Source: an uncultured Gammaproteobacteria bacterium | Lineage (GTDB): Bacteria; Patescibacteriota; Patescibacteriia; UBA1558; S5-K13 | Length of the DNA: 64,000 bases | Assembly: GCA_964640635.1 (NCBI GenBank) | Contig: CAZXFD010000002.1 | Coordinates: 26,153 to 90,152, forward strand | Direction: 5' to 3' | Part shown: positions 5,595 to 63,977 of the stretch, piece after piece | Layout: each line of letters begins with the position of its first letter | How positions within the stretch are numbered: position 1 is the first letter of the stretch | Position numbers and translations under genes: made by a program | Notes under the pieces: generated by a model | The model's input: only the letters and a program-made list of their open reading frames with translations | Told to the model about the DNA's origin: nothing | The model's database searches: none

Positions 5595-5618
5595 TACCTG
5601 CCTACCGGCAGGCAGGTA
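5595..5618. repeat. GC-rich near-perfect palindrome tacCTGCCTaCCGGCAGGCAGGta
   Basis: It has one mismatch relative to the perfect copy at 7356-7375. It lies between the argS stop and the gatB start, so it probably acts as a terminator or attenuator. Confidence 0.6.
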
Positions 5619-7317: not shown

Positions 7318-7355
7318 GGGATAGTGTTTAGTATATATTCTAATCTTTTGACATT

Positions 7356-7375
7356 CCTGCCTGCCGGCAGGCAGG
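7356..7375. repeat. Perfect 20-bp GC palindrome CCTGCCTGCCGGCAGGCAGG
   Basis: The sequence is its own reverse complement. It sits between the glycosyltransferase stop and the argS start and is a sister copy of 5595-5618. Confidence 0.7.
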
Positions 7376-16727: not shown

Positions 16728-19700
16728 TTATTTACTTCCCCTTATTATAACTTCATGCATTGTATCATTTCCCACCATATAGGTATTTGTCTCTTTTGCT
16801 TCAAACTTGACCCCTGTATCTTTACTTAGTTTTTCAAGTTGTTTCATAATTATCTGATATGATGTTTGCTCTCTAAATTGAGCAAATATAGGAATTATAT
16901 TATCTTTTTCAATATAATTTACCTTGTATGCTTCTACAAAAGCTAATATTAATGATCCTCCCGCTCTAGAATTTCCATCTGAAGCAAGATCTGATACATA
17001 TACAATATTTTCCGAATCCTTATCGTCTTTGTCCATTTTACCTTCATAAGCAAGAATATAGCCGTGCATTTTTTTGTCTTCTCCGGTATATTTAAAACTC
17101 ATCTCTGGTCTATTTTTTATCATATTATTAACATCTTTTGCAATGAGGGCATTTTCCATATTATGCAAATATTGAATCAATTTTTGATTATCTTTATATG
17201 CCTTTCCCTCAATATACGCAACCTTTATTGAATCTTGAAATGTAAGACTACTAATACCCCTTGGTAACTTCAATTCTAATCTTTTTAAATTTATTTTTTT
17301 CTTTTCTTGCATACCAGTAACTCTTGATAAAATAATCCCTTCTTTTTCCTCCTTAGATATATCTAACAACATTGATTCACCAAAATTTACATTATCACTA
17401 TAACCAACCGGAGCCTCTGGTACGGTTGTGTTTGCTATTCTATCAAGAGATATATTTGCATCAGTATACCCAAGACCTACTAATACCTTATTTTCATCTA
17501 AATTATATTTTTTTGCGAATCTTCTTATATATTCTTTAAAAAAATTAGCGTATAGAATTTTTAATACCTCTGTATTATTTCTTTGTGATTTAAAATTAGG
17601 TGCAACCTCTATATTATCGCATGTAATTATGCTCTGTTTATCTATTAAAACATCGTCGCTTACAATATCATGCATATGGGCCTCGAATTTATTTAGTTGG
17701 GCCACTACTTCTAATATATTTTTTTCTATATCAATATTTTTTGTAAGGACACTTTGAGCAATAGTTCTCCAATTTTTTTGTTTATTATTATCGCTAGATT
17801 CGGTCAATCTTTGAATAGTAAATAAAGAACATATGGGATTGAATGTGTATACATTACTTTTTCCGCTTCCAAATGGCATACAACAAGAAGTATCATTTCC
17901 AGCAACCACTCCATTAGGGTCTGATTTTAAATTTATTTTTGCACGATACTCTTCAATTATTCTATCATCTTCAAGTCCACTGTTCTGATTATATATTATA
18001 TTTAATATCTGATCCTTAATACTTTCTAATACCTGGGCTTTGTCTTCTTCTATTTTTCCAGACTGAAGATAAGGAACAATATTAATTTTGTTTTCTTTAA
18101 AAATCTTTTGTAGTTCAGAAAATAATTTATCCGGATTTTTTGCTTCCCCTAGCACACCCTCTCTTCTTTTTCCGATTGCTTTTAATATTAATTCGTTTAA
18201 TTCCAAGCTTCCGTATTTACCGCTAGATATCATTAATTTATAATCTATTTCTAAAGGTTCAAATACTTGTAAATTATCATAATCCCCCTCCACAAGAGCA
18301 TCTCTTAAATCATCCGAGGATAAATCTAGGTGTGAAATTACTATATAATTTGATGGCTTTTTTCTATCATGAACCTCTCTTGGTGTATGACTATCTGATA
18401 ACTGCAAAAATCTTCCTGAATTTTTCCAAAACTCCATCACTTTTTGCATTTCAATATTAGGATGAAACGCGAGTTTTTCAATATAATTATATAAATTTAT
18501 TTTTCCAATACTCTTCAACTCTTTTAGCTGATCCAATATTTCTTTTCTATTTAAAATTTGACATAAATCATTATATTTCCTAAGCATTTTCCAAGAAGAA
18601 AATACATCTCCAACGCTTCGTATTTCTTTTAGTAATTTATCTAGAGTTGGCAAACCGTATTCTTTTGCTTGAGACAATGTTTCTTCTAAATTGGAATTAA
18701 TATTGCGAGAAATGCTATTTAATACATGATATGAGCTACCAATTTCATAAACAGCTGTATCATCTTTTATTTGTTTTAATATATTATTATAAAATTCATT
18801 TGCAGATAATCCAGAAACATTGTATAAGTCTATTATTTTCAAAAAATTATGAAGAGCATCATGCTTAGAAATATTGGGCCTTTCAATATAATTGAACATT
18901 TTAGAATAACCAAATATCTTAGCCCCTGTTTCAAAAGGAATTAATATATTTTGTTCATCTATCCAGTTTTCATGTTTTCTTTTCAGTTTGTCAAATATAT
19001 ATTGACTTTTCACCTCACTTCCCATTGTTCTTATCTTATCTAAATCATCTTTAATGAAATAGAGCTCCGATGGTAATAAATTTAAATTCTTTGCATCATC
19101 AAATATGTAATCGCAATCTTTTGAAAAAAATCCATGTCCATTATCAATGCTCTTAAAATAAGATTTTTCAATGCAATAATCTAAATCACCCTTAGATAAA
19201 ACCACATTAAACTCTTCTTTAATTTTTGAGGCTTTATCTATATATAGCAACAAACACCTTATCATACCCTCTTTAGCAGCCTCAATGACAAGCTCTTCTG
19301 ATACATTAAATTTATCTTTTATTAAAATACCTGCATCAAAGTTTCCCTCAGAAAATCTATTTACCATTCCTTCTTTTGCATATTGTTGTATTTTTGAAGA
19401 TGCAATCATTTCATCGCTAATATTATATTTCTCTATTATACTTATTGCATTATAAATCATTCTCGAAGCTACGGAGATTTTCGATATCGCTTGAACTACA
19501 GCATCCAAAATAGTTTCTTCATTTAGATGAAACGTGTCTATTATTTCCTGTACAAAATCACGCCTTAAATCATTCGATAGAGCCCACGCAATTACTTCTT
19601 TTGCGGCATCCGAAACAATTTCTTCATTTACATGAAACCTATTAATTAGCTCTATAGTCTCCTTTATTCCCTTTGTCCGAAGTAAATCTATTACTATTGG

Positions 19701-25998: not shown

Positions 25999-26075
25999 AA
26001 TAATTATAATTATTTTATAACAATCCCTTTATAAACGTATTTATTGAAATTTTGAAGTTTGAAATTTATTTGTCA

Positions 26076-26146
26076 TTTTTCGCCAGAGGCGAATCAGCCT
26101 TTGGCTGAGAAATTTACCTATCTCGCCAAAGCTTTAGCGAAGGCGG
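26076..26146. repeat. Diverged member of the GC-rich intergenic repeat family (ttttcgccagaggcgaatcagcctttggctgag...gcgaaggcggat)
   Basis: It shares ttttcCGCCAG...GCGgATCAGCCTTTGGCTGAag with the copies at 29013 and 39311 but lacks their central hairpin. It lies between the alpha and beta oxidoreductase genes. Confidence 0.5.
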
Positions 26147-26147
26147 A

Positions 26148-27893: not shown

Positions 27894-29009
27894 TTATTTA
27901 TTTAAAGAGAGTACCATATTTTTTTCTTCATCACAGGACACGACAATGACTTTTAATCTATTAAAATGCTTATTACTCATTATCAAATCTCTTATATCAC
28001 TATTTCTCTCCCCTATTCCACCTGAGAAAACAACCGCATCAACATTATCTAACAATGTCATATATGAAGAAATATATCTTTGTATTCTATAAATAAACAT
28101 ATCCAAGGCTAATTTAGCCATTTTTTTGTTTTCTCTATTACCTATCACATTTGATTTGTATCCTGGAATTTTGTAAGCATTTAAAATCATAACATCACGA
28201 AGATCAGAAATTTGACTTATTCCTTTTATACCTGAATTAAAATTTAATTCATTGAAAATAGACTCAATATCATTTCCATATGATAATAAATATTTCACTA
28301 TAGAAGCGTCTATATCACCACATCGCGTCATCATCATAAGACCTGATAACGGAGAAAAACCAAGTGACGTATCAATAGCCTTGCCATTTTTTATAACTGA
28401 TATACTAGATCCCCCTCCCAAATGACAAGTTATGATATTTGTATTAGATATTTTTTTCTTTAATTCCTTAGATGCCTCAACAAGCATTCCTTGATGAGAA
28501 AACCCGTGAAAACCATATTTTCTTATTTCCTTATATTTATTTAAATATTTTTGAGATATAGGATAAGAGAAAACACGTTCTTCTAAATCACAAAAAAACA
28601 TTGTGTCAAATACTCCAATGTGTTTTGCCTTTTTCCAAATACCAATAGATGACTTTGCAACTGACAAATTAATAGGGTTGTGAAGTGGTGCTAAGTCATT
28701 ATATTTTGATATTTTAGAAATGATAGATGAATTCAATATAACTGGCTTTGTAAATTCTATTCCACCATGAACGATTCTATGAACTATTTTTTCTATATCT
28801 TCTTTTAGATTAATCTTCAAAAAATTATAAACAACGTCAAGCGCTTCTTTGTGTGATAAAATTTCTTGATTAGACAATAAACCATTTAAATTAATTATAG
28901 AATTATTACTTCCTATTTTTTCTATTAAGCCAAAATAAATCTGATTTAATTTTTTATCAAATAATTTAAACTTCAGTGATGTGCTCCCACTATTTAAAAC
29001 TAGTATCAT
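27894..29009 (-). CDS. ackA: Acetate (or propionate) kinase
   Basis: VLNSGSTSLKFKLF N-terminal ASKHA motif and the internal H..FHGFSHQ segment. Confidence 0.85.
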   Translation of the reverse strand: MILVLNSGSTSLKFKLFDKKLNQIYFGLIEKIGSNNSIINLNGLLSNQEILSHKEALDVVYNFLKINLKEDIEKIVHRIVHGGIEFTKPVILNSSIISKISKYNDLAPLHNPINLSVAKSSIGIWKKAKHIGVFDTMFFCDLEERVFSYPISQKYLNKYKEIRKYGFHGFSHQGMLVEASKELKKKISNTNIITCHLGGGSSISVIKNGKAIDTSLGFSPLSGLMMMTRCGDIDASIVKYLLSYGNDIESIFNELNFNSGIKGISQISDLRDVMILNAYKIPGYKSNVIGNRENKKMAKLALDMFIYRIQRYISSYMTLLDNVDAVVFSGGIGERNSDIRDLIMSNKHFNRLKVIVVSCDEEKNMVLSLNK

Positions 29010-29012
29010 TTG

Positions 29013-29095
29013 TTTAGTATTTAGTGTTTAGTATTTTCCGCCAGCCAGCCCCGCTACGCGAAGCATGACCGGGGAGGCGGATCAGCCTTTGGCTG
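29013..29095. repeat. GC-rich ~83-bp structured intergenic repeat (copy A), bounded by agtgtttag direct repeats
   Basis: About 96% identical to 39311-39392. It contains a ccccg-16nt-cgggg hairpin and a cagcc-ttt-ggctg hairpin. It lies between pduL and ackA on the strand opposite to both genes. Confidence 0.7.
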
Positions 29096-29129
29096 AAGTG
29101 TTTAAAAATTACTTATTTACATTAAACTG

Positions 29130-29711
29130 TTAGTCGATTAAAATAATTCCTTGCTCTCCCTGAGATATTCCACAAGCATTTGCTTCATCTAAATCAATAT
29201 GTGCTCTTGAATTAAATTTTTCATCAACTCTTACTATAACATTATCAAATATAACTCCTCTTTCTCTGCCAACCTTCAATTTTACAATTGCCCTATGTTC
29301 TATTCCCAGGCTCTGAGCCTCTAGACTAGATATATGAATATGTCTCTTTGCAACTATGACACCACTTTCCAAATTAACCTCATCTATTGGGCCAACGACT
29401 TTTAATCCAGGAGTATCATCTATATCTCCAGAAACTCTTATTGGGGCCTTTATTCCTAGCTTAAAAACGTCTGACAACAATATTTCTATTTGTGTTTTTT
29501 CTCTCTCGGGCCCTATCATTCTAACATTTTCTATAGACCCGTTTGGTCCTATTAACTGGACTACTTCTTGTGCTGCAAAATCATCCCCTTGAGATAATTT
29601 CTTTTCGCTTTGAAGCTCATACCCCTCTCCAAATAATTTTTCAACTAATTCTCGACTAGGGTGTATGTGCCTATTTGAATACTCGACTTCAATATTAAAT
29701 TCTTTTGCCAT
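29130..29711 (-). CDS. pduL: PduL-type phosphate acyltransferase (phosphotransacetylase/propanoyltransferase)
   Basis: Two PduL half-domains, each with an RHIH motif (SNRHIHPS and AKRHIHIS). Confidence 0.8.
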   Translation of the reverse strand: MAKEFNIEVEYSNRHIHPSRELVEKLFGEGYELQSEKKLSQGDDFAAQEVVQLIGPNGSIENVRMIGPEREKTQIEILLSDVFKLGIKAPIRVSGDIDDTPGLKVVGPIDEVNLESGVIVAKRHIHISSLEAQSLGIEHRAIVKLKVGRERGVIFDNVIVRVDEKFNSRAHIDLDEANACGISQGEQGIILID

Positions 29712-39088: not shown

Positions 39089-39310
39089 AAAATTAAAATA
39101 TAAGTGATTATTGGCTTATTTTACTATATTTAGAAATAAAATCAACTAAAACAACAGAGATCTAATATACTCAAAAACACCCCTATCTGGTCTCTTTACA
39201 TTTCTCGAAATAACTCGTGTTCTATTTCTCATCTCTTGCTTCATCCAGTCAAAATTTTGACATCTTGAATAGTTTAGCATTTGTTTTGATTCGTTTTTTT
39301 TCATACATTT

Positions 39311-39392
39311 AGTGTTTAGTCTTTTCCGCCAGCCAGCCCCGCTACGCGAAGCATGGCCGGGGAGGCGGATCAGCCTTGGGCTGAAGTGTTTA
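39311..39392. repeat. GC-rich ~82-bp structured intergenic repeat (copy B)
   Basis: Near-identical to 29013-29095, with 3-4 differences. It lies between the small merR-like gene and ileS. Confidence 0.7.
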
Positions 39393-39438
39393 GTAATTAG
39401 AACAAGTCTAAATCCTAATTACTAAAAACTAAAATCTT

Positions 39439-39663
39439 TTATTTATTTTTAAAATAATTTTTTATTTCTTGTATTGTCCACCTTTTTTGGGTTTGTAATT
39501 TTTCTATTTCTCTAACTTTTTGTAAGGCATTATTTTTTTCATATAAACGATACCCGCCTTGAGTATATGAGTCGGGTTTTAATAATCCTTCCTGAGTATA
39601 AAAATGAATGGTCGAAGGCAACCTATTTAATTCTACCGCTAGTTCTCCTATTTTTAATAACAT
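39439..39663 (-). CDS. MerR-family HTH-only transcriptional regulator (74 aa, no effector domain)
   Basis: LKIGELAVELNRLPSTIHFYTQEGLLKP...GGYRLY matches the MerR HTH consensus. The protein ends after the first coupling helix. Confidence 0.7.
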   Translation of the reverse strand: MLLKIGELAVELNRLPSTIHFYTQEGLLKPDSYTQGGYRLYEKNNALQKVREIEKLQTQKRWTIQEIKNYFKNK

Positions 39664-39854: not shown

Positions 39855-39890
39855 AAAACAAAAAACCCAGCTCTGAAATAGAACTGGGCT
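39855..39890 (-). terminator. Intrinsic terminator for the 39907-40419 gene (cccag...ctggg hairpin, T-run on the minus strand)
   Basis: The hairpin 39866-39888 is preceded on the + strand by aaaacaaaaaa, which gives a T-run on the minus strand. Confidence 0.45.
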
Positions 39891-39906
39891 CTTTAAAAAA
39901 TAAACT

Positions 39907-40419
39907 TTATTTTACTGCTTTTTGATCTTCTATGTATTTTTCAATTGCTTTTACAACTTTTCCATCTGTCTTTAGATCTTCTATAAATAATACGTGATCT
40001 CTATTTATCTTCATTTCGTCTTTTGGACCATGGAGTTCATTGCCAAGCTTTACAAGTGAAAGCTCTCCTTGTTGTTCTGTTGATGGTGTTCCATCTGGTT
40101 GTAATGCTTGAGTTACTTGAAGATAATAAATGTTTTTAACGGTAATTGTATCATTGTTTATACTTGATGCTTGACCAAAATAAACCTGGCCATTTGATAA
40201 AAATACTGCTTGCCACTGACCACCGTTCTTATCAAGTCCTAGAATGTTTAGCTTTGTCATCTTTGAAATGCCATAAAGGCCAGCAAAGATTACAAGAACT
40301 ACAACAACTAAGACGACTGCCCATCTTACAATAGATGGCTTTTTTTTCTCAGAAACTGTTGGTTTTTCTAGTTCCATTTCTGAAACAGAATCTGTTTCTG
40401 ACCCAAATTTTCTGTCCAT
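39907..40419 (-). CDS. Hypothetical single-pass membrane protein
   Basis: 170 aa with a charged N-terminus, TM WAVVLVVVVLVIFAGLYGI and a C-terminal soluble domain. Confidence 0.55.
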   Translation of the reverse strand: MDRKFGSETDSVSEMELEKPTVSEKKKPSIVRWAVVLVVVVLVIFAGLYGISKMTKLNILGLDKNGGQWQAVFLSNGQVYFGQASSINNDTITVKNIYYLQVTQALQPDGTPSTEQQGELSLVKLGNELHGPKDEMKINRDHVLFIEDLKTDGKVVKAIEKYIEDQKAVK

Positions 40420-40653
40420 ATTTTTGTCCTTTCTTATTACTTATATCCCATTGGATTATACAATAATTATATCATTTTTCATCTATTTTTCAAAGGTTTT
40501 GTATGTGCACATTATTGGCTTGTTTAAGAGAAAATACGAATACAAAACGATGTCAATATACAAATGTGGGTTAGTAAGATTAGAAAACTAGAATAATTAG
40601 AAAATAGGTTAAATTTATTTTTCTAATTACCCGATCCTTCTAATCCTACTAAC

Positions 40654-43600
40654 CTAATTAAATTTTATTGCACTACCAGCATAGTCTAACTTAACTTGTT
40701 CTGGAGTAAATGCATAATTAAATATTTTTAAATCATCTATTTTTCCACTAAAAAAATCTCCGTGAATACGTCCTTTATAAGAAGCTCCTATAAGCATTTC
40801 GTCGGACACTTTATAAATATCAGAATCAACCAAAAATTGATCAACGCCATCAACATAAATTTTTTTGTTTGCGACATCCAGAACAGCATAATGCCATAGA
40901 CCATCATTAAATTTATTTATTGTTATTTTTGCATAATTATTTTGAGAATAAAAAATAAGACCCTTATCCAAACCAATGCTATCTAAAACATCCGTACCAC
41001 CGGCCCCATTTGCAAAAATTACCATTTCAGAATTATTTGAAGTCGTATTGAACCAAAAAGAAACACTAATATTGCTAGTATACCCATTTGTTGTAATATC
41101 AACGTAATCATCACTTCCGTCAAAGTTTAAACTTGCCTTACGTTTTCCATTTCTTCCATTGTACCATGCAGAAGCTGTGTTATTATCAGTACAAGTACCA
41201 GCGGCACTTTGAGACCCATCTGTGCCAATTGTAATAGTACCATCTAGACCATTTCCTGATTCATCATGAAGAACAACATCCGAACATTCATCAAATTTGT
41301 AATGAGCAATTGGGGCTCCCTTATTATAATCCCAAGCAATTTGCGCTGGTGTGCGAGCATAATTATAAATACGCACATCATCAATATCCCCATTAAAACC
41401 AGAACTATTATTATACCTTATAAAAAAATTACTCCTTGCAACAGGATCTTCGGTTGAAATTGTAGCATCCGCGGGAATGTTATTATTATCAATATATAAT
41501 TTTGAATTTAATATGTCAGGAGGCTTTGTTCCAGCAATATATACTACCAAATGATGCCACCTGCCATCAAGATAATTTTGAGCAGAAGAATTAAAATATC
41601 TAAAATTATTATTGGCTAAATACAATATTGGTCTATTATTAAGCCAATTAAAAGCAAAATGACCACGACTATTAGTTCCATTTATATCAAAAATAATCTT
41701 TTGAGATTCAGCGTCGGAATTTTTGAACCACATTGATACTGTAATTTCTCCACTAGTTGCAATAGTTCCACAATTTATATAATCATTACCATCAAAACTC
41801 ATAGCACTACCAAATTTACCCATTACTGAATTAGCACCAAAGATTTCTCCGTTCTTATTATTTCCACTTGTATCATATGCAAGGGTTCCTGATTTTTTTT
41901 CAAACTTATATTCTGCTACAGGGGGTGCACAAAAGCTCGTATCTCCTGGAATACAATAATCTGAACTGGCGCTCGTGTTTGTTCCGGTAGAACCCATTAC
42001 CATTGTCATGCCCTGATTATAATCTACCTTTACTTGACTCTCTGATAAAGCATAATCATAAACCCTTACTTCATCTAGCAAACCATATATTCCAAGACCA
42101 TCATCATGAAATTTTCCTAAATACATAATTGAACCTACATTCATATTTCCAACCGTACCAATATAAATTGTTAAAAGCTTTCCATCTATATAAACATTTA
42201 GATTATCTCCTACACCTGTTTTTGCAATAACAATATGATACCACCTACCCAATGTAAAATCATACGGATAGGTTCTCCAATCATAGTTTATAATATTATT
42301 TGGAACATATGAAACATCAAGACCACTCCTAGTTAACTTAATAAAACTATAAGCATCTTGCTCATTTCCACCCATATCAAACATAACCCCGTCAGATGTT
42401 GGTTTTACCCAAAAAGAAATTGTATGTGTATTATCTCCAGAAATAACATTTGGAATAGATACATAGTTATCGGCACGCTCATAAAAACTAAGCGCCTTTC
42501 CAAATTTTCCATCACTTGTCCAAGAGGCTCCGTATATTGTTCCACTATTTGTAGTTGTTCCATAATTATAAGTAGTTGTCCCATATCCTTCATCAAAATT
42601 ATAATACAAAATTGGTGGTGTAAGTGTCTCAATACGTGATCCAAGTTTTGCACTAACCCCTGCTATTCCAAGTGCCAATTCTTGACCACTGAAAGCTCCC
42701 ACACTTACATCATCATATGAGAGATAATCTTCTTTGATATAAATATTTTCTATCTTTGAAGTCATATTCATATCATTACAAGACAATCCTAGCGCTGGGC
42801 CACTAACGCTAGTTCTATTTTTTCTTCTACTTATCAATTCAAATGATCTTTCGCTTACTACATTATATATCCCGTAATTTTCTGCTGTATCATCACAACG
42901 TGTAAGAGGTGGAATAACAAATTGAGGATCTTCACAAGATAAAACACAATTTTGAACAACATCAGTACCGACTAAAAAAGTTTCTAAATTACTATTTGTT
43001 CTCTGTCCTCCATAATTTCCTGTTCCATCCATTGACCAACAATAAGACTTTCCATTGACTAAACTATGTTTTGCCCTTACTTTATCCCATTGAATAGTAC
43101 TTGTAACTTGTACCGTAGCTCCCGTATCATTATTATCACAACCAACATCTTGATGAGTAAATATATAAAACACCCCACCATTTGAATCTGTTTCTGTGTG
43201 AACTTCAACATATCTTGAAATAACTGAAGAAATCATTTCTGGTTCAACAAGCATCCAGCCTCCATCATTATCAGTCATATCACAATACACTTCTTGTTCA
43301 TCAGCTAAATATCCATTTGTAAAATCTACAAAATAAGCTCCTGATCCTGTAGAACTGCCACTTGCAAGTATTGATTTACAACTTAGGGCTGGAAAACTAG
43401 ATGTTCCTATGATTGATTTTCCAGGACTCGCAATAGAATTTCCATAATACATATACACGCTTATTCCTGACTCTGGAATACTTGCAATCCTCAACCATAC
43501 ATCTACACTCGTTGAAGTAGTATCTTCTATCCAATATGAAAGTAAATTTCCATTTATATCTGTGAATCTAAGATCATTTAAATTGTCTTGAATTTTTCCT

Positions 43601-43836
43601 AAACTAATCTCTGATGACAAATCTAGATTATTAAAAATCTGGACCTGATAATTAACGAGAGGGGTTCCTGATGAGTTTGTAATTCCAATTGATTTGCGAT
43701 AAAGCCAAGAAGCATCCCACCAAGAAGCTTGGACTGAATTATTAACGCGGAGTAAATAAATCACGCCGAAGACAATCATGATGCCGATGACTATGGCTGA
43801 GATGTAGAATTTGTAATTTATTGATTTTAATTTCAT
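40654..43836 (-). CDS. Secreted/anchored DUF2341-domain protein with three LamG-type (concanavalin-A-like lectin) domains
   Basis: N-terminal TM/signal, then WLYRKSI...LRFTD..GNLLSYWIED (DUF2341 signature). Three LamG_3-type blocks each end in D[DE]VR[VI]Y[DN]YA.[ST].EQ[IV]..DY. Confidence 0.75.
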   Translation of the reverse strand: MKLKSINYKFYISAIVIGIMIVFGVIYLLRVNNSVQASWWDASWLYRKSIGITNSSGTPLVNYQVQIFNNLDLSSEISLGKIQDNLNDLRFTDINGNLLSYWIEDTTSTSVDVWLRIASIPESGISVYMYYGNSIASPGKSIIGTSSFPALSCKSILASGSSTGSGAYFVDFTNGYLADEQEVYCDMTDNDGGWMLVEPEMISSVISRYVEVHTETDSNGGVFYIFTHQDVGCDNNDTGATVQVTSTIQWDKVRAKHSLVNGKSYCWSMDGTGNYGGQRTNSNLETFLVGTDVVQNCVLSCEDPQFVIPPLTRCDDTAENYGIYNVVSERSFELISRRKNRTSVSGPALGLSCNDMNMTSKIENIYIKEDYLSYDDVSVGAFSGQELALGIAGVSAKLGSRIETLTPPILYYNFDEGYGTTTYNYGTTTNSGTIYGASWTSDGKFGKALSFYERADNYVSIPNVISGDNTHTISFWVKPTSDGVMFDMGGNEQDAYSFIKLTRSGLDVSYVPNNIINYDWRTYPYDFTLGRWYHIVIAKTGVGDNLNVYIDGKLLTIYIGTVGNMNVGSIMYLGKFHDDGLGIYGLLDEVRVYDYALSESQVKVDYNQGMTMVMGSTGTNTSASSDYCIPGDTSFCAPPVAEYKFEKKSGTLAYDTSGNNKNGEIFGANSVMGKFGSAMSFDGNDYINCGTIATSGEITVSMWFKNSDAESQKIIFDINGTNSRGHFAFNWLNNRPILYLANNNFRYFNSSAQNYLDGRWHHLVVYIAGTKPPDILNSKLYIDNNNIPADATISTEDPVARSNFFIRYNNSSGFNGDIDDVRIYNYARTPAQIAWDYNKGAPIAHYKFDECSDVVLHDESGNGLDGTITIGTDGSQSAAGTCTDNNTASAWYNGRNGKRKASLNFDGSDDYVDITTNGYTSNISVSFWFNTTSNNSEMVIFANGAGGTDVLDSIGLDKGLIFYSQNNYAKITINKFNDGLWHYAVLDVANKKIYVDGVDQFLVDSDIYKVSDEMLIGASYKGRIHGDFFSGKIDDLKIFNYAFTPEQVKLDYAGSAIKFN

Positions 43837-43850
43837 TGATTTGCTAAGAG

Positions 43851-43887
43851 CCCAACCCTGGGTTGCCGAATAGTCAACCCAGGGTTG
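43851..43887. repeat. Perfect 14-bp inverted repeat CCAACCCTGGGTTG - 9 nt - CAACCCAGGGTTGG between the giant gene stop and the LamG gene start
   Basis: A GC-rich hairpin in a 59-nt intergenic spacer, with no clear T-run. It may be an attenuator, an RNA-processing site or a stabilising structure. Confidence 0.5.
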
Positions 43888-43895
43888 GTGTTATA

Positions 43896-61800: not shown

Positions 61801-63977
61801 GCAACTATTCCACTAGTAACCGCTAATTGTCCGTTTACTGTTGTGCTTGCAAAAGTAGCAATTCCATTTAATAGGATAGAATAATTATTTGCTAATATAG
61901 AATTATTACCAATTTCTAAATTATTATTAAATGTCGATACTCCATTAACTAATAAATTTGAAATTGTTGTAGATGCCAATGTGCTTGTTCCATTTACCGT
62001 TAGGTTTCCAGAAATTGTTCCACCACCTAATCCTAAATACATTGAACTAGCTGTAGCTACTGTTAAGTAATCTGCATCATTTGTCCATTGTCTAATTGTT
62101 GATGTTGCAAAATTTGAAACTGATAAGCTTGTTGAGACGGCAGACCAATATGGATCTGATTCTGTATATGATGTTAAGTATCCTGCGAGTGAATGGTCAC
62201 CCCAACTATATGCATCGTCCCAAAAAGATGAAGATGCTGAAACTATATTATATGACTCATTCCATTGTAATGAATTACCACCTATTACTGATATAAGATT
62301 TGATACATACAGATTTGTCCCTGTTGCAGATGTGAAGTTTAAGTCAGAAATAGTGGTTGAAGCAAATGTTAAATTCCCAAGAGTTGTATTTCCATTAATA
62401 ACTAAATTATTTAAAGTTGTTGTTCCACTGACTGTCAAGTCCGTAATTGTTGTTGTTGCAAGAGTGCTCGTTCCAGTTACGGTAAAATCTCCATCAACAA
62501 AAGATGAAGAAGCAACTCCAGTTCCAACTCCAACAGGATCTCCATTCCAATAAAGAATTCCGTTTATATTATAAAGTGTGTTTGCTGTAACAAGTGGCGT
62601 TGAAGATGCAATTGTAATTCCATTTTGCATCACACTAATTTCTGATGCAATTATATTTGCAAAAGTTGAAGTGCCACTTACTGTCAAATCATTACTTATG
62701 CTTGTTGTAGAAAGATTCGTTATTCCAGAGACTGCCAAATTTCCAGAAATATTTTGGTTGCCAGAAATATTTATAGCATTTGCAAATGTAACATTTCCAT
62801 TAAATATTACATCGTCTTCAAATCTAGCACGAGCTGTTACTATAACCCCTGCATTTGTATCGCTTGATACTGTAAGCGCATCTGAAACAGATAAGTTTTC
62901 TACTGCTAAAAAACGCGAAACGCTCAAATCCCGCATTAGAACTTGAGCTGTATATGTATTTGTATTAGTCCATGTATTATTTGACTCCAGTGACGCACCA
63001 TTTTGAATAATAGTTGTAGAACCACCACCTGACCCACTAGGTCCCATTGGACCCGCCGGACCAGTAGCACCAATATCTCCTTTTGCTCCTTTATCTCCTT
63101 TGGTGCCATTATTACCTGCAACTCCTCTTGGTCCCATTGGACCAGCAATACTAATTCCCTCAGATTTAACAACATTTTGAATAATTGTATCTCCATAACT
63201 ATTACTATAATAATTTTGAATAATAGGAGCATCTGGATTATATGAATAAAAATTTTGAGATTTTTCTAAATCTGCAAGATCAGTTATTGAATTTGCAAAG
63301 TTTTTCCAAAAAGCTAAATTTGCATTCTCACTTCTTTTTGTAAGTTGTATAGAAAATCTATAAGGACTCTGTCTATAAAAATTAATTTTATCTAAAATAT
63401 TTAAAACTATATTTGTCTGACTAAGCTTTACACCATTTTTAGAAAAAACTGATTCTTTCATTCCCAATACTCGAGATTTATTTTGATCGTTTTCTAGATT
63501 AGAGCTATAAGATAAAAATTTATTTTGTAATTTATTAACATTAACTTTTCCATTTTCAAGAACATTAAAATCTTCTGAAATTTTTACAAGATTATTTTTA
63601 TAAGAATCAATTTGATAATCAGATGAATTAAAAACAAAATATACTTGCTCTGGAGTTTCAATATATTTTGATTTTAGAGATTCATTAAACAAACCAACTT
63701 TCTCAAATAAATTTTCTAAATTATTTTTATAAGAATAAAAAAGTTTGTCTACTGCAACCTGAGTAGATTCTTTTATTGAGTTTTCATTTTTGGAGAAACT
63801 TGCAATTGCAAGGGGAGAAAAAGTTTTTGTGATAATAAGAATTGCAACAAGTGCAACAGAAAAATTTAGAGATCTAATAAATTGATCTAGGGAATAATTT
63901 TTATTAAATTTAAAAGTTGGTAATTTTTTATCTTGAGAGATTTTTGCAAAACTAATATTTCTAAAATTATTACCCAA
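43896..63977 (-). CDS. Giant (~6,693 aa or more) cell-surface fibre/adhesin-like protein: N-terminal signal anchor, collagen-like Gly-X-Y segment, very long Thr/Ser/Gly/Asn-rich beta-helical repeat array with tail-fibre-like motifs, a beta-propeller-like region, and C-terminal pectin-lyase-fold (PbH1) beta-helix domains
   Basis: A single uninterrupted 20,082-nt ORF. The annotated start is a TTG at 63977, but the frame stays open to the window edge, so the gene may begin beyond 64000. Also: TM LNFSVALVAILIITKTFSPLAIASF; GPMGPRGVAGNNGTKGDKGAKGDIGATGPAGPMGPSG; recurring NVGIGTTTPNAGLHIV...LTLGYDSSNYS modules; C-terminal GGD[FY]..I..A......[ST]....R[WY][LV]I.[IV]K.G.Y.E.[IV]TL and NNNRII...G.GI.I.N pectate-lyase-like turns. 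Confidence 0.85.
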   Translation of the reverse strand: MGNNFRNISFAKISQDKKLPTFKFNKNYSLDQFIRSLNFSVALVAILIITKTFSPLAIASFSKNENSIKESTQVAVDKLFYSYKNNLENLFEKVGLFNESLKSKYIETPEQVYFVFNSSDYQIDSYKNNLVKISEDFNVLENGKVNVNKLQNKFLSYSSNLENDQNKSRVLGMKESVFSKNGVKLSQTNIVLNILDKINFYRQSPYRFSIQLTKRSENANLAFWKNFANSITDLADLEKSQNFYSYNPDAPIIQNYYSNSYGDTIIQNVVKSEGISIAGPMGPRGVAGNNGTKGDKGAKGDIGATGPAGPMGPSGSGGGSTTIIQNGASLESNNTWTNTNTYTAQVLMRDLSVSRFLAVENLSVSDALTVSSDTNAGVIVTARARFEDDVIFNGNVTFANAINISGNQNISGNLAVSGITNLSTTSISNDLTVSGTSTFANIIASEISVMQNGITIASSTPLVTANTLYNINGILYWNGDPVGVGTGVASSSFVDGDFTVTGTSTLATTTITDLTVSGTTTLNNLVINGNTTLGNLTFASTTISDLNFTSATGTNLYVSNLISVIGGNSLQWNESYNIVSASSSFWDDAYSWGDHSLAGYLTSYTESDPYWSAVSTSLSVSNFATSTIRQWTNDADYLTVATASSMYLGLGGGTISGNLTVNGTSTLASTTISNLLVNGVSTFNNNLEIGNNSILANNYSILLNGIATFASTTVNGQLAVTSGIVATGTINLAGNIIASGDLQIQGNTTLQSLTYTSATGTTLALSSLTVSSTSNLAAISGTSLNISGSTNLNELTVASSTISNNFVVLGVTNLASTTISSLIVSGNTTTTGDQVVSGNLNVFGTTTLNNLAITGGLNLGNITIASTSITNLTFNSATGTNLNIDTLTFRNASGISVTSTNLFASILRAVNATIENTITALIGRFTNLESEHTTSTELVAGTATVTSSLTSLGITNLATTTLSSTTLTTLNFTSATGTNLYVSNLISVIGGNSLQWNESYNIVSASSSFWDDAYSWGDHSLAGYLTSYTESDPYWSAVSTSLSVSNFATSTIRQWTNDADYLTVATASSMYLGLGGGTISGNLTVNGTSTLASTTISNLLVNGVSTFNNNLEIGNNSILANNYSILLNGIATFASTTVNGQLAVTSGIVATGTINLAGNIIASGDLQIQGNTTLQSLTYTSATGTTLALSSLTVSSTSNLAAISGTSLNISGSTNLNELTVASSTISNNFVVLGFTNLASTTISQLSVTNSAYIGGNATITRTLFVVDNNTLYVDSVNHKVGIGTSSLVQALNVAGTIRTTDLAGEGLGNRCLYVSPDGDILAKSGDCGTATSTGDDFGTHIATQNIRLGNYWLSGDGGNEGIKVDSNGNVGVNVATPLARLNVGGTTEQLRLSYDVSNYSSFTVSSTGNLTIAPSGLNTYITGKLYASSDLIIGANATISAISGNIETVGSLSVVSTSTLGNIQISGSSIGLSGNANLLTLSNSGLNITGVVTSTNSYVTNNLIVGNNLNVFGTSTLASTSISNLTVTGLSTLATTTLSSTTVTGNFLVGTSLLFANVLNGRIGIGTTTPAFTLDVNGIVNAKDLYVNGSQYTGSQWTTFGNSIYYNSGNVGIGTTTPNAGLHIVTSTTQLTLGYDSSNYSTLSTNSSGDLVATSASGKILLGNTIVNISADGTNLFVGSDAGFGASSVSNSNFLGQYSGARAENAADSNFFGQYSGDRSTNASNSNFFGQAAGARAEYASNSNFFGQAAGAEATNASNSNFFGQAAGAEATNASNSNFLGYYAGSRAINASDSIFIGTNAGNNDGVDNTQNYGTSILIGRYTSTGGYSDSIAIGRGTANSAERQLNIGNVLYGTGIYNHDATNPTPIVGGRIGIGIEAPSSTLHVVSNSTTQFTLGYSESKYVTFGTNSFGDLRVTPNGGTTTLASNLFVTGTSNLQNLQVTNATTTGNLAVVGFTNLATTTINGNLTINGTVIGTGLFTSSTINNLVFANATGTQSLVVTGYTTLATTTLTRNVIPDMTGSVTTNVSLIMLGDETHQFKDIYTDELHLGPSSLYVNGKKVIQDNSNVMNFTTSPDQSLKVITSGNLGALGLESQHTISLNSSSTLSMNSKESISLLVPNDLDGKGISIQTNSSGGSITLSALDGSSQILSRAGLRIALTAPTIDLYGTTNIHGSLSVTGTITNATWGGNIIGVPYGGTGTTTFTSGGILLGNGTGEINATRVFANGELLIGDGTGAPTIGTLTQGSLISIVNGAGSIAINHAVSSALGQTNLGGTVIQSIALDNYGHISTISSTSLDNRYHTTSSADSLFVNVSGDTMTGNLIVDGTSDFATTTISNLIVDGGVTTTINGLLFNGLNIAVSGNSNLLTLSNTGIAIGGVVTSTGIYNSGALMVLGNTILASTTINGTLQVNGNATTTGNQVVLGFTNLVSTTIAGAVVINGTVTTTIGGDVNFDSNTLVIDSVNNRVGIGIANPALALEINGSIRVGANGYVSDTGGSRMGYLSSGVWGAYSPNADFRIRGYNGTSVTDVLYADTAGSTGFIGIGTTTPNYKLSVVSSSSTENLLQIATTTNQGIFVVNSDGNVGIGTTTPRFTLDVNGVVNATALYVNGSPYIGSQWTTNGASIYYNIGNVGIGTTTPNAGLHVVTTTTQLTLENSAGNYTNINTNANGFLTVSPSGASSTIVGSLRITSGLVVSGNATTSGNQIVSGNLNVSGISTLATTTIASLSLSGSLNDSTNSAGSDGMVLRSTGTSTQWVSTSTIVGGNALVNLNGLTSSAQNFATGTSGNIFNIVSSGSTHTFNMPIASSVNTGQLQNSDWSMFNNKLSGAGVANYLLRYVTATTTATSSVYDNGTIIGLGSRATITVSSGDITTLGTLSASGTLAVTGNATMHSDLRVVGTSTLGNVQITGNNIGLVGNADLLTLANSGLQIDGIVTSTQMYVSGNAVVAGTLFVSDGSSTTPSIAFIGDPDTGFYRYSDNTISITAGSNEAMRISDTQISMFNPVSFEAVGNVAIANDLIFTNSSASYIKSESALYVQTNSAYLDLNLVLSAANLGDVIVDDTLIVTGTSTLATTTINGTLVVNGNATTTGNQAVSGNLTVGGTINGSFISTSSTFTNLTFGSATGTNLYVSGNTSLASTSVAGTFDATGIISAFGGNSMNWNSAYGWGNHADAGYLLGSTASTIYLSLSTWFSTTTLPSNIVNSSLTGVGVLNSGSINTGFGTILTNNTITGSVINGTTGINTGADSGTQRIDASGNLVNIGTISSGLINGQTISSSANFTGTLTVVGTSTLATSTISQLAVTNGLNVSGFSILANLQVTNATTTGNLAVFGFTNLASTTITGSFILNGVDIGNGYFSSSTISNLAFTNATGTQSLVILGNTTLATTTVNGNAIFNGNTTTVVNNFLVGANDLFVNHSNGYVGIGTTTPSSALHILNANAQLKLGYDSLNYTNFQNSGGGLDIHTYAPAVNHPYTRFSFNSNDGLDIGSFSDINEGGFYEVNGDGVIAGFDYDDNRFVYGGRALTINLGDIGIGTSTPTSKLTVSGDTLLYGNATTTGNLVVSGFTKLASTTITGNLSITGNSTITGNQFISNNLQINNNLKVAAVLSVGDFITLDGQGGNITGASALVGNPYVGELYIGGDFYGDDLGLYDVSNDFMIAGKNYNTGIYQYGGAFSSSDGLFINNGNVGIGTSTPTSKLTVSGDALLYGNATTTGSHYINNLITESLNVSGVSMLDSLTVSNTVTTTNLIVTSTSTLGNMLIAGNNIGLSGNANLLTLLTSGLNISGVVTSTNSNVTNNLVVGNNLNVLGVSTLASTTVTGAFAVNTNQLYINPLNGYVGIGTTSPQYALDVYSSDNYLGQLRANHGIFGDRYTSNYVNVGYDILGGEIGMSWNVNDELIVGVNSAQTAYKFGGYSDDAGISVNINSGYIGIGTTTPLSRLTVSGDALLYGNGTTTGSYYIGSALNVSGLSTLANLQVTNATTTGNLAVLGITNLASTTITGSFILNGVDIGNGYFSSSTISNLAFTNATGTNSLVMLGNTTLASTTIAGSFSVNTNQLYVNPLNGYVGIGTVDPGNTLHVSSSDSIAARFTSFDSSRGGLYLGNNNSYSTDEFGLYDAGGDMPLVVYEASPDSMNDVIHYNNISVNPSTGNVGIGTTTPAFTLDVNGIVNATDLYVNGSKYIGSQWTSNGNSIYYNTGNVGIGTTTPNAGLHIVTSTTQLTLGYDSSNYSTLATDNYGNLVISPSGNMITFAPAAVDSVNIVGDIQGTGKNIIGLYSSTGDQVLAEINITDQTYTYGNGALLIDEANSNSLFSNNLIIGSGATITSTGIATFATTTVTGLIASNNGVSISSSTPIITTNTLYNLGGNLYWNGSAVGSGAESDPIWMAASSSYALLSGANFSGDISVGGRATITASSGDITTVGKISASGTLAVSGNVNLFSDLTVAGTSTFGNVQIAGNNIGLASNANLLTLSNNSISISGDLSVGGNATFTGNILPSADNIYTLGSDTNRWKDLYLGPNSINIGVAGNYALLGYSTTSNYLSFNPSGNGISQFVMTDTGYLGIGTTTPSQALTLNGNIQFDGDGNIMADTVVNFNTSINVGGTVTSSNGFAVGNTTVVNALGNISGDRVDEVVSGRSTYNSLNDRFNAITANYSSILSNASLFSDSFQTTTNVNTSNTTAAYNSMIGTIQNNTDAWTKIDINYGTGDNIRSISGTIVYGNKLYVATYGYGIKVLNLDTEAIVGQWTATSTPSLAQVNFTSIAYDYDRNDIYAGFYSAGPGLVKIDVDANTITTYTTANGLKSNTIGNQLGNVMQYYNGKVYLFPSGSYMQVFNVVSGTFTDYDNSPDSGLPSGSYYDVQAYGNELHISTSVGFYIWNMDTDTLVKRYYSNGPQGLYNYTNVIYSSWQDPDDSDIVWLSSASSWQKLSKTNGWQEFHRVDQEISLNTSLYWIRKIGGQLWFGGYSSYRPDGYLVYDLNAENYFVISGTQKILGNAIFTSSYHQRPLYYNGYYYFSIYAFADIYKSQLAYEASNIFETNVIVSSANNITSAKLTYSGGVGTGNSINWYLSADNGVHWEGPVTPNVLWEFTNIGTQVKAKAVMTAGVGTTPIIRGITVTAFDGDTWAGEGSNTVETEVLQARNSSSYGIFGSLDLRLEDIDTKISLAVTSTHTHDDRYLQVSGGTVSGSVIVSGNITSNNLYTSADSTYNLGTSTAYWLNTYSDNLYLNSTAYLSGTTAGAIAVNGNLGVGTSSPSSKLDVYVASPSANQRLFNIGTSGNASRFSVDAEGDYFYDGTGSSPSADYAEYFYTTNIDLVSGEVVCIDVSRNNSVIRCNRSSDTNIMGVVSTKPALLGNAKEEYRDNNNYKMIALLGQIPGRVSNENGNINPGDSLTSGSRSGYLMKANPGDSTVGIALESLSASEGSINVLISRRNKSLTVEQIESQITDRIANMEIEDEVAIMISNAIGSYNFASTTQILINDSLATVYSSLDQTSDTVAILADEINKLKGLDYKTNVWDFISDASSMGNLYQVNLQTANSYGFGDFNDIYVTGENATGYSIYNKLSTVYDGKAQTAFGNYTELQTSDEVDVNYGSYIVSASDSKAGTQIGQYINLNSASTTNWAIFVDNLGGKSYFGDNVLVGSEVPVLSWTEFNMTGDDLFVKGDIGIGGNMFVDGALSVKGNAEFLGDLLVIGDIYSSGSFKSSNSGYAQMMELTNSNFEYGDVVVLNEGNSVKLSDRANSSNILGIIAEKPAFISGNSETGKPIVTMGASLVNVTASNGLIKKGDYLTTSNEPGKAQKASKLGAGVIGIAMEDMEGGHDQIAISVQIGYFNNHVNTIEVAKTGGDFDNILSAMSSITDNSESKRYVINIKSGEYSETITLKPYVDVICENSSSTIIIGSSAPAVIGANNSRIENCSLKSIGSASNVSVVSIAGSGPVINNNRIISEVASGVGINIENTTAGKISPVISENEFIGSMSQGIVNFASDNDMIVMNNNIQNVTGSAIATLNGVITSSGNIFKGMLVDINIGENGKLFSTNDKFETLENIGTFIDFTGNGNKLAHYVIDGFMLESTSINSLVASLSSGEAYVNGTHISIKPIKQITLLPNVDNYIYISNLGEILVTSERSDENKVLLSTAKTDASSILAISNDRQNEVVVAKQGGDYTSISEALSKIKLNSANNRWLITVKPGIYNEQVTLIPFVDIVGSGRENTRITQINRPAVVAASKSSISNITLANYADEIGQEVVSINAVSVTSTEYDKFSFAMTNVLVDYNKSSFAPNYASSSAIKITSGLDNENLSSGSTSSVSLVDLKLNSVETRNADIAINWNLYDENWSATSTSRLLSHIDISNSRLSSNYSDIRTRAFTGDIISSTEYLETINAVSLISSSYNLYSGSNLSFDLGSGTKLTTSHDNYGKVVGSNALILNDFNRNVAQYDDLWVLQNNGSRIMSVNGNGNILMSPQNVALDSFSMSQNISSTTLTVVASENNIAANFFGRVVISPTLNASGTSSGIAELMFSSDGVISANGNKLQVGKSGDTVDLNVEGVAYILPDSAVRDTITAYVDVPRVDTRVWGNGENSWKPAEDIKILKLKAQYKCGDGGSITLRLEDKNNSELAIISGGNCSNGYANIESGDLNINLTSEDGMHVVVTQISGGGEESEGPSQLTITVEYVYRRDLASGNSNKNNN
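58590..58900. repeat. 51-bp tandem repeats (~6 units) inside the giant gene encoding the 17-aa repeat NSNFFGQAAGAEATNAS
   Basis: Units start at 58641, 58692 and 58743; adjacent units are nearly identical. The protein reads DSNFLGQYSGARAENAA / DSNFFGQYSGDRSTNAS / NSNFFGQAAGARAEYAS / NSNFFGQAAGAEATNAS x2 / NSNFLGYYAGSRAINAS. Confidence 0.8.
60217..62760. repeat. Tandem direct duplication of ~1,272 bp (two ~424-aa protein repeats) inside the giant gene, near-identical
   Basis: The identical antisense pseudo-ORFs 60824-61024 and 62096-62296, and 60259 vs 61531, are all offset by exactly 1272 nt. There is one visible substitution (VNPNTT vs VTPNTT). Confidence 0.8.

Follow-up and report, generated by a model that had tools for sequence, protein, structure and literature searches.

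In a 64,000-nt stretch of DNA from an uncultured member of the Patescibacteriota (GenBank assembly GCA_964640635.1, contig CAZXFD010000002.1, positions 26,153 to 90,152 of the forward strand; the whole stretch is called the window below), we analyzed a gene for a lectin-like protein that lies directly downstream of a gene for a giant, fibre-like protein, with a perfect hairpin in the spacer between the two. The analysis points, with a probability of about 0.6, to an exported, modular surface protein of the Patescibacteria DUF2341 family, whose gene is read through from the giant gene across a generic hairpin resembling repetitive extragenic palindromic (REP) elements. The mature lectin would consist of a DUF2341 beta-sandwich and three LamG jelly-rolls, all of them recovered by Pfam, and of a disulfide-rich module between them with a predicted fibrinogen-like fold. 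It would expose carbohydrate-binding-type modules on the cell surface and attach to host cells or polymers, with the LamG array, whose fast divergence was observed, as the putative specificity-determining part, and its gene would be transcribed within a surface-protein neighbourhood. The giant gene, the lectin gene and all other genes discussed here are on the minus strand, and the features are listed in Table 1.

The open reading frame (ORF) of 1,060 aa with an N-terminal hydrophobic segment, which an earlier prediction made for this DNA (the original prediction) had described, was found as stated. An exact-sequence look-up of its product gave no match, the database entry being a 1,041-aa variant of the same protein that another pipeline called from a shorter start (P0001). 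The ATG at 43836 is supported because two homologues, P0002 and P0010, retain the complete N-terminus (MKQTNYKYYISAIVIG...). AlphaFold2 predicted a helix at aa 8-30, and the sequence around the predicted cleavage point reads V35-Q36-A37 followed by S-W-W-D. An alanine two residues before the first tryptophan was observed in 70 of the 72 homologues compared, while four residues before that tryptophan 54 of them have A or V and 11 have T or S; A37 forms an invariant alignment column, though the site sits in an unstructured stretch with a predicted local distance difference test (pLDDT) value of 47. The [AV]-x-A pattern fits the -3/-1 rule for signal peptidase I. Because this site is kept across the homologues, the segment that had been called an N-terminal anchor is most likely a Sec signal peptide cleaved after V-Q-A37. 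No prepilin G/A-F/M...E motif was seen in the N-terminus by inspection, and the eight cysteines of the middle module, together with the conserved signal-peptidase-type site, would count in favour of export.

The domain content agreed largely with what had been proposed. Both strings quoted for the DUF2341 signature were found, WLYRKSI at aa 44 and LRFTDINGNLLSYWIED at aa 89, and Pfam DUF2341 (PF10102) matched aa 86-138 above its gathering threshold (43.1 bits, cut-off 23.4). The DUF2341 region has a pLDDT of 81-91 in the AlphaFold2 model of aa 1-420 (mean pLDDT 70), and among the viral models of BFVD this N-terminal model matched DUF2341 proteins of archaeal viruses (E = 8.8e-7). The three LamG modules, which share 28-30% pairwise identity, were recovered as three stretches by Pfam Laminin_G_3 (PF13385), again above the gathering threshold (178.2 bits, cut-off 27.6). 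The motif D[DE]VRIYNYA..[ST]..Q[IV]..DYN, with which each of them was said to end, has no match in its literal form, while a relaxed form of it occurs at all three module ends (aa 588, 819 and 1034).

The 260 aa between DUF2341 and the first LamG module (aa 141-400) had been overlooked, and the additional fibrinogen-like module found there strengthens the lectin-like reading of the domains. NCBIfam NF040941 (GGGWT_bact, the fibrinogen-like YCDxxxxGGGW signature) matched aa 152-197 with 48.9 bits, above its curated cut-off of 30, and weak PDB sequence matches of this module were to tenascin fibrinogen-like (FReD) domains. The best fibrinogen-type fold match in PDB was FIBCD1 (E = 0.023, probability 0.90), with the weak fold matches being strongly enriched for FIBCD1, ficolins, intelectins, tachylectin 5A, angiopoietins and the procollagen C-propeptide; in BFVD, cyanophage fibrinogen-like and collagen-NC1 proteins matched more weakly than the archaeal virus proteins (E = 1.4e-3 to 1.9e-3). 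The N-terminal signature of a fibrinogen-like module is present, and the module would adopt the whole fold with a divergent part at aa 200-400. It shares the SC...YCDxxxxGGGW arrangement, the richness in cysteine and the extracellular setting with fibrinogen-related lectins (ficolins, FIBCD1, tachylectin 5A and intelectins), COLFI and NF040941; unlike in these, only the N-terminal sub-domain is detectable by sequence, and the module is bacterial and placed between DUF2341 and LamG.

A word-indexed search found 123 homologues. Source names bearing a taxon were available for 22 of them, all from Patescibacteria or a member lineage (Komeilibacteria, Shapirobacteria, Woesebacteria and Moraniibacteriota among those named) except one Nonomuraea protein, and most of the named homologues are labelled 'DUF2341 domain-containing protein' or LamG. 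With the first 420 aa as the query, 5,473 cluster representatives matched at E <= 1e-3 and 1,828 at E <= 1e-10. Typical members are 1,600-2,000 aa in length, with some giants of 4,500-6,800 aa carrying several DUF2341 copies. The family blueprint, to which the lectin of the window conforms, comprises a signal with the [AV]-x-A site, a WW[DN]xxWxYRK DUF2341 core, a middle module that varies between members, a linker (SEE..P.P..YWKFDEG) and a LamG array. This middle module is fibrinogen-like, 'FEFFDDF', glycine-rich (PF21722) or of another type, with one inspected homologue (P0022) having none, and the fibrinogen-like type was observed in only a minority of the motif-bearing homologues sampled. 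With the Patescibacteria DUF2341/LamG family as named by NCBI (PF10102 plus PF13385), the lectin shares the signal, the WW[DN]xxWxYRK...LRFTD...YWIED...YYGN core, the linker and the LamG array, with matches at E = 0 to 1e-100, whereas it has three LamG modules and 1,060 aa against the typical five or six and about 1,700 aa. The lectin thus belongs to a very large and already annotated family, for which an adhesive role has been proposed before: concanavalin-like lectins have been proposed for the attachment of Patescibacteria episymbionts (PMC12911398), and there are reports of DUF2341 both from giant Patescibacteria proteins (PMC11809585) and from archaeal proteins predicted to be pilus-tip adhesins (PMC4858521, PMC10133366). 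One homologue from a Logan contig (P0010, 1,083 aa) has a nearly identical signal peptide (LKFYISAIIIGIMIVFGVIYLLRVNK...) and lacks the fibrinogen-like module; this protein, probably a paralogue from the same genome or a sister of it, fits a cassette-like evolution behind a conserved leader.

A comparison with the closest relative (locus L002, GCA_019248545.1) revealed that the order of the giant gene, the DUF2341-LamG gene and the genes for a 172-aa protein, MerR, IleRS and RecO is kept. Identity to this relative is 84-92% for IleRS, MerR, RecO and TGT and 71% for the C-terminal part of the giant (about 2,800 aa); within the lectin, DUF2341 has 61% identity, the fibrinogen-like module 71% and the LamG modules 34-41%. 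This relative also differs in its number of LamG modules, and its lectin gene is split in two. By these identities, the fastest-changing gene of the neighbourhood is by far the one for the lectin, its LamG array in particular, which agrees with a role in surface recognition.

The start of the lectin gene lies 59 nt behind the stop codon of the giant gene on the same strand, as had been noted, and the hairpin of this spacer was also confirmed, its arms (43852-43865 and 43875-43888) pairing in 14 of 14 positions and its tail, GCUCUUAGCAAAUCA, having no U run. It starts 7 nt past the fibre stop codon and ends 15 nt ahead of the lectin ATG. As RNA it folds at -30.1 kcal/mol (z = -6.2, with none of 200 shuffles as stable), and no other 50-nt stretch of the minus strand in the window folds as stably (mean -5.1, sd 3.1). 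Each arm is itself palindromic, CAACCC(W)GGGTTG, and contains CCWGG. A canonical intrinsic terminator has a GC-rich stem followed by a U-tract; the U-tract is missing here, and the minus-strand terminator scan does not list the hairpin. In the 59-nt spacer, no promoter-like site was detected by scan and inspection. A promoter overlapping the hairpin was considered for the TTGACT at the junction of the 5' arm and the loop, and was rejected as neither inspection nor scan gave a -10 box at usable spacing. With the stem ending 15 nt ahead of the ATG and no promoter-like site in the spacer, the lectin would be expressed only when RNA polymerase reads through the hairpin, which favours the co-transcription that had been judged probable from the gene arrangement. 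As read-through is needed, the hairpin would be no efficient terminator if the intact, conserved lectin gene is used. Translational coupling across the hairpin was considered for the lectin gene, which is without a Shine-Dalgarno sequence, and proved uninformative, about 29 of the 35 genes of the window being likewise without one. The 74-aa MerR-type regulator was considered as a binder of the two palindromes and dropped, its homologues in the fetched loci being found only in L001 (same sequence) and L002, while a MerR domain in L024 gave no match to it at E <= 1e-3.

Table 1. Features of the lectin locus and of other parts of the window (coordinates are positions in the window)
Feature	Coordinates or location	Strand	Description
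Lectin ORF (stop codon included)	40654..43836	-	1,060 aa, ATG start
Probable Sec signal peptide, aa 1-37	43726..43836	-	Basic n-region, 20-aa hydrophobic helix, V-Q-A ahead of SWWD
DUF2341 beta-sandwich, aa 39-140	43417..43722	-	WWDxxWxYRK ... LRFTD ... YWIED ... YMYYGN
Cys-rich fibrinogen-like / COLFI-like module, aa 141-400	42637..43416	-	8 Cys (SCKSIL ... YCDMTDNDGGWMLV ...)
LamG module 1, aa 405-612	42001..42624	-	Ends DEVRVYDYALSESQVKVDY; Pfam; match to 5hon, like an arabinanase carbohydrate-binding module (CBM), E = 4e-6
LamG module 2, aa 637-840	41317..41928	-	Ends DDVRIYNYARTPAQIAWDY; Pfam
LamG module 3, aa 841-1060	40657..41316	-	Ends DDLKIFNYAFTPEQVKLDY; Pfam
Intercistronic spacer, 59 nt	43837..43895	-	No promoter-like site, no Shine-Dalgarno
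Perfect 14-bp GC-rich hairpin	43852..43888	-	9-nt loop, no U-tract
Giant gene, 6,693 aa	43896..63977	-	N-terminal signal/anchor, short G-X-Y stretch, repeat-bearing S/T/G/N-rich body
Long imperfect AT-rich inverted repeat	40569..40654	-	36-nt arms, 81% complementary; starts at lectin stop codon; no U-tract
Next transcription unit	39859..40493	-	Promoter-like site, Shine-Dalgarno, 170-aa gene, terminator
U-less GC-rich stem	ArgRS to GatB	-	ACCTGCCTGCCGGTAGGCAGGT
U-less GC-rich stem	Glycosyltransferase to ArgRS	-	CCTGCCTGCCGGCAGGCAGG
U-less GC-rich stem	25999-26147 (spacer), between two POR-type (thiamine pyrophosphate, TPP, enzyme) subunit genes	-	Spacer folding
U-less GC-rich stem	PTAC to acetate kinase	-	Spacer folding
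U-less GC-rich stem	IleRS to RecO	-	Spacer folding
U-less GC-rich stem	MerR to IleRS	-	Spacer folding

Every co-directional minus-strand spacer of the window was folded, and at least seven GC-rich, U-less hairpins were observed at co-directional gene boundaries, the giant-to-lectin boundary included. Three canonical U-tract terminators are also present in the window, after the 170-aa gene, L25 and GatB; since both kinds of hairpin occur, the organism uses both. The suggestion that the hairpin looks more like a processing or stability element than a terminator therefore stands in so far as it departs from the canonical form found three times in the same window, but the spacer hairpin is one of a generic class, present also between unrelated housekeeping genes (ArgRS/GatB, glycosyltransferase/ArgRS, PTAC/acetate kinase and MerR/IleRS), and not special to the giant-lectin pair. 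The intercistronic REP hairpins of enterobacteria, of which the malE-malF element stabilises the upstream mRNA, are likewise GC-rich, perfect palindromes with no U-tract, placed just past a stop codon between co-directional genes. The hairpin of the window is extragenic and palindromic as these are and has several comparable elements in the same genome region, yet its sequence is single-copy in 64 kb, with no RAYT transposase nearby and no Y1_Tnp encoded in the window. By analogy with the REP elements of E. coli, its most likely action at the RNA level would be that of a barrier to 3' exonucleases or of a partial attenuator, through which the fibre mRNA would be stabilised and less of the lectin mRNA would be present, and it would be a member of a genome-wide class of REP-like intergenic palindromes instead of a pair-specific device.

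Several points weigh against this interpretation of the protein and of the hairpin. The 20-residue hydrophobic stretch of the N-terminus is long, so it could stay in place as a membrane anchor. In the middle module, Pfam COLFI (PF01410, 25.5 bits, cut-off 26.2) and Fibrinogen_C (PF00147, 17.7 bits, cut-off 22) both fall just below their cut-offs, aa 272-343 have a pLDDT below 50 in the AlphaFold2 model, and a PDB fold search with the aa 1-420 model gave no match at E <= 1e-3. The exact palindrome of the hairpin being single-copy in the window, 'REP-like' denotes a likeness in kind and not repetition, and a U-less hairpin could, in so little-studied a lineage, still terminate efficiently, leaving the lectin poorly expressed. 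The recurring adjacency of fibre-like and DUF2341 genes in several lineages could also mean that a real functional partnership is under-weighted here.

Such a partnership is at the centre of the first alternative, a two-component attachment organelle in which the secreted lectin docks through DUF2341 on a trimeric giant fibre and the hairpin tunes the ratio of fibre to lectin within an operon; we consider it rather unlikely. The pair is syntenic in the closest relative, and the lectin, apparently freed from the membrane by signal cleavage, would need another means of retention. A scan of species-representative genomes for the neighbours of DUF2341 genes revealed that many of these genes are immediately preceded, on the same strand, by an ORF of >1,000 aa. 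Fibre-like ORFs with Peptidase_S74, the intramolecular chaperone of trimeric tail fibres, which are non-homologous to the giant of the window, lie 1-31 nt ahead of DUF2341 genes in L004, L024 and L031, while large ORFs with repeat-level similarity to the giant lie just upstream of DUF2341 genes in L003, L023 and L034, and further upstream in L008, past a LamG-only ORF. DUF2341 is also found fused into giants of 4,500-6,800 aa elsewhere, and the collagen-like G-X-Y stretch of the giant suggests a trimeric fibre. However, the DUF2341-bearing giants of 2,600-6,800 aa that were tried as a gene fusion ('Rosetta stone') have no detectable similarity to the fibre of the window, and about nine of the upstream ORFs are tandem DUF2341-LamG paralogues or LamG-only ORFs and not fibres. 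Where the same fibre C-terminus recurs, other genes follow it, namely a Y1 transposase and a PT-HINT protein in L067 and an AAA ATPase and an Lcl_C protein in L066; in L068, only about 1 kb of palindromic repeats follows before the contig ends. Upstream of the closest lectin homologues, which have the same middle module, are an 806-aa LamG protein and a 23S-IVP gene (L069), housekeeping genes (L071) or a ComM-like gene (L072), and a giant fibre directly upstream was found in none of these three loci. The hairpin, in addition, is of a type that is generic in this genome. The co-occurrence in related genomes that the original prediction, with its two-component apparatus, had proposed to look for was thus observed in L002, the closest relative, but not in L066 and L067 (same fibre C-terminus) or in L069, L071 and L072 (closest lectins), where the relatives of either gene have other neighbours. 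Large surface-protein genes appear to cluster in these genomes, and judging from these loci the conservation of this pair does not reach beyond a short evolutionary distance. Fibre and lectin may form a physical complex, for which there is no support beyond local synteny.

In the giant itself, S, T, G and N together make up about 46% of the residues (12.6, 11.8, 10.9 and 10.8%, respectively); it has internal repeats, and its N-terminal hydrophobic segment ends in A-I-A. A short collagen-like G-X-Y run at aa 279-318 (window ~63020-63140) gave weak matches to Collagen and to streptococcal Scl, which suggests a trimeric fibre from this run. The lectin module in turn weakly resembles the collagen C-propeptide (COLFI), a likeness that may be coincidental. 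The depolymerase-like tip that had been attributed to the fibre was not verified. Near its C-terminus there is a 'GGDYTSISEAL...VKPGIYNEQV' motif with a single weak pectinesterase sequence match (E = 0.0085), and no Pfam or NCBIfam match to a pectin-lyase fold or depolymerase, or to FhaB or DUF2341, was found in the giant. Fold matches of its last 640 aa to tailspikes and depolymerases (E = 3e-5, template modelling score (TM) ~0.13) were left unused, as the AlphaFold2 model has a pLDDT of only 38. A word-indexed search with the last 1,000 aa gave no homologues, the low-complexity composition having probably swamped the candidate list, whereas the last 350 aa gave three short homologues (L066, L067 and L068) with 52-55% identity.

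A more ambitious form of this alternative, in which giant and lectin form one host-attachment appendage, with DUF2341 docking and the LamG array and swappable middle module setting the host specificity, could be likened to the receptor-binding proteins exchanged on phage tail fibres. This idea seems unlikely; if it were true, the recurrent pairing of S74 fibres and DUF2341 in the candidate phyla radiation (CPR) would represent a widespread, undescribed two-part adhesion system.

Decidedly improbable is an arrangement in which the hairpin terminates transcription efficiently, whether with the help of a factor or as a U-less intrinsic terminator particular to the lineage, so that the fibre transcript ends there and the two genes are functionally uncoupled. 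The very stable GC-rich stem 7 nt past the stop codon would suit such a function, similar U-less hairpins occur at boundaries of unrelated housekeeping genes, at which a transcript might sensibly end, and some of the other U-less hairpins are followed by promoter-like -10 boxes near the next ATG. However, between stem and ATG there is no room for a promoter and none was detected in the spacer, so full termination would silence an intact, conserved gene of 1,060 aa; canonical U-tract terminators serve at unit ends in the same genome, and a U-less hairpin also lies between PTAC and acetate kinase, which are typically co-expressed.

Hardly probable at all is a palindrome without a role in expression, whether as a neutral, selfish insertion like a REP or a miniature inverted-repeat transposable element (MITE), or as a protein-binding site at the DNA level (two copies of the CCWGG-containing CAACCCWGGGTTG): an identical two-arm palindrome is dispersed in an unrelated organism, the equivalent spacers of relatives hold selfish genes and palindrome arrays and the hairpin sequence is not conserved in L002, but it is single-copy in 64 kb with no RAYT or Y1 transposase encoded in the window, a transcribed stem of -30 kcal/mol would affect RNA decay or the passage of polymerase or ribosome whatever its origin, and a fixed dimer-of-dimers operator is at odds with a centre-to-centre distance of 22 bp in the window against 25 bp in that organism. 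The only orthologous spacer available for comparison is that of L002, where the hairpin past the orthologous fibre stop codon is likewise GC-rich and U-less but of another sequence, and a DUF559 gene is inserted between CCCTCTCCC/GGGAGAGGG palindromes.

The dispersed copies of the exact hairpin arms (CAACCCTGGGTTG ... CAACCCAGGGTTG) were observed, with variable loops, in an unrelated organism of ~64% GC in the metagenome LNFM01, where the comparison (L053-L065) gave 12 matches on 11 contigs, plus one match in another assembly. The exact palindrome was found in none of the other Patescibacteria loci, and its presence in LNFM01 could reflect coincidence, convergence or transfer. Selfish genes were also observed beside DUF2341 or fibre genes, namely DUF559 in L002 and Y1_Tnp (IS200/RAYT-like) in L067 and L069, as were a 23S-rRNA-IVP-type four-helix protein in L023 and L069 and dense palindrome arrays in L068. 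The spacers round DUF2341 and fibre genes in these five loci are a hot spot for selfish genes and palindrome arrays.

Compared with known systems, the lectin, a probably exported DUF2341-LamG protein, shares DUF2341 and a predicted adhesive surface role with the DUF2341 proteins of archaeal type IV pili (Makarova et al. 2016, PMC4858521; Methanococcus MMJJ_08210, PMC10133366), but it differs from these adhesins, which belong to a pilus locus and often have a class III (prepilin) signal, in that its signal is probably of the Sec type and no pilin, ATPase or TadC genes of a type IV pilus were found by Pfam scans of large ORFs across the 64-kb window. With the giant adhesin-like FhaB/DUF2341 proteins of Patescibacterium danicum (PMC11809585), the locus has in common very large surface proteins, lectin-type modules, a proposed host contact and a reduced-genome symbiont, whereas DUF2341 and LamG are here on a separate polypeptide of 1,060 aa adjoining the giant and not fused to it. 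How ultrasmall Patescibacteria recognize and hold their hosts is a central open question for a huge, mostly uncultivated lineage. Giant adhesin-like proteins are known from other ultrasmall symbionts as the SPEARE proteins of nanohaloarchaea. The locus offers a clean example of a modular build in which the signal and DUF2341 are conserved, the middle module can be exchanged and the LamG array diverges fast. This build is found here in a surface-gene neighbourhood beside a giant fibre, and the locus is a reasonable target for binding and imaging work. It refines known ideas and opens no new one, the family being annotated, adhesion having been proposed before and the hairpin being of a common kind; with both the DUF2341-LamG family and U-less hairpins common in these genomes, the finding is real but fairly ordinary.

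Apart from the giant and the lectin, the genes of the window, which has a GC content of ~30%, are housekeeping or envelope genes. They include those for IleRS, the 74-aa MerR-type protein, RecO, TGT and ribosomal protein L25; for a PfkB kinase, the phosphotransacylase PTAC, acetate kinase, pyruvate:ferredoxin oxidoreductase subunits and GAPDH; for several glycosyltransferases and an O-antigen-ligase-like protein; and for ArgRS, GatB and aspartate carbamoyltransferase. Scans of large ORFs found no transposase or phage genes in the window, and scans of the window for Rfam families at gathering thresholds and for tRNAs gave no match, the hairpin included. A Shine-Dalgarno-like sequence is missing at the same ~29 of 35 genes, and in several genes (10084, 30741 and 31331, for example) a TATAAT-like -10 box abuts the start codon or sits within ~10 nt of it, which suggests, from the sequence, that leaderless or short-leader mRNAs are widespread in this organism. 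A 1,921-aa ORF at 16728-22493, with no Pfam match, lies amid GT2 glycosyltransferase genes and the O-antigen-ligase-like (Wzy_C) gene and is a further large envelope protein of unknown kind.

The next transcription unit downstream of the lectin gene carries a strong promoter-like site at 40493..40466 (11 of 12 matches plus TG), a Shine-Dalgarno sequence and a canonical U-tract terminator at 39895..39859. It encodes a single-pass membrane protein of 170 aa (39907-40419), which has no Pfam or NCBIfam match and 89% identity to its 172-aa counterpart in L002. A homologue with 47% identity was observed directly upstream of the DUF2341 gene in the Komeilibacteria locus L008, and the 170-aa protein may be a third associated component.

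Two other kinds of repeated element were also observed in the window. A GC-rich element of ~100 nt occurs in two copies on the minus strand, at 39300-39440 (MerR/IleRS) and 29005-29135 (PTAC/acetate kinase), with a nearly identical core of 75 nt and folds of -35.2 and -32.5 kcal/mol, respectively; neither copy has a match in Rfam, and the element may represent either a structured RNA that has escaped recognition or a repeat of the REP kind. The perfect palindrome CCTGCCTGCCGG(C/T)AGGCAGG, also with no U-tract, is present at 5596-5617 (ArgRS/GatB) and 7355-7374 (glycosyltransferase/ArgRS). The same 20-mer precedes a DUF2341 gene in L039, an unrelated CPR locus, and a variant is present in L068, which suggests, from these occurrences, a palindrome family common to Patescibacteria. 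In addition, an RVT_1 reverse-transcriptase gene (421 aa) was observed at ~16800-19750 of L069 (GCA_021735685.1), about 8 kb from the DUF2341-LamG gene of that locus.

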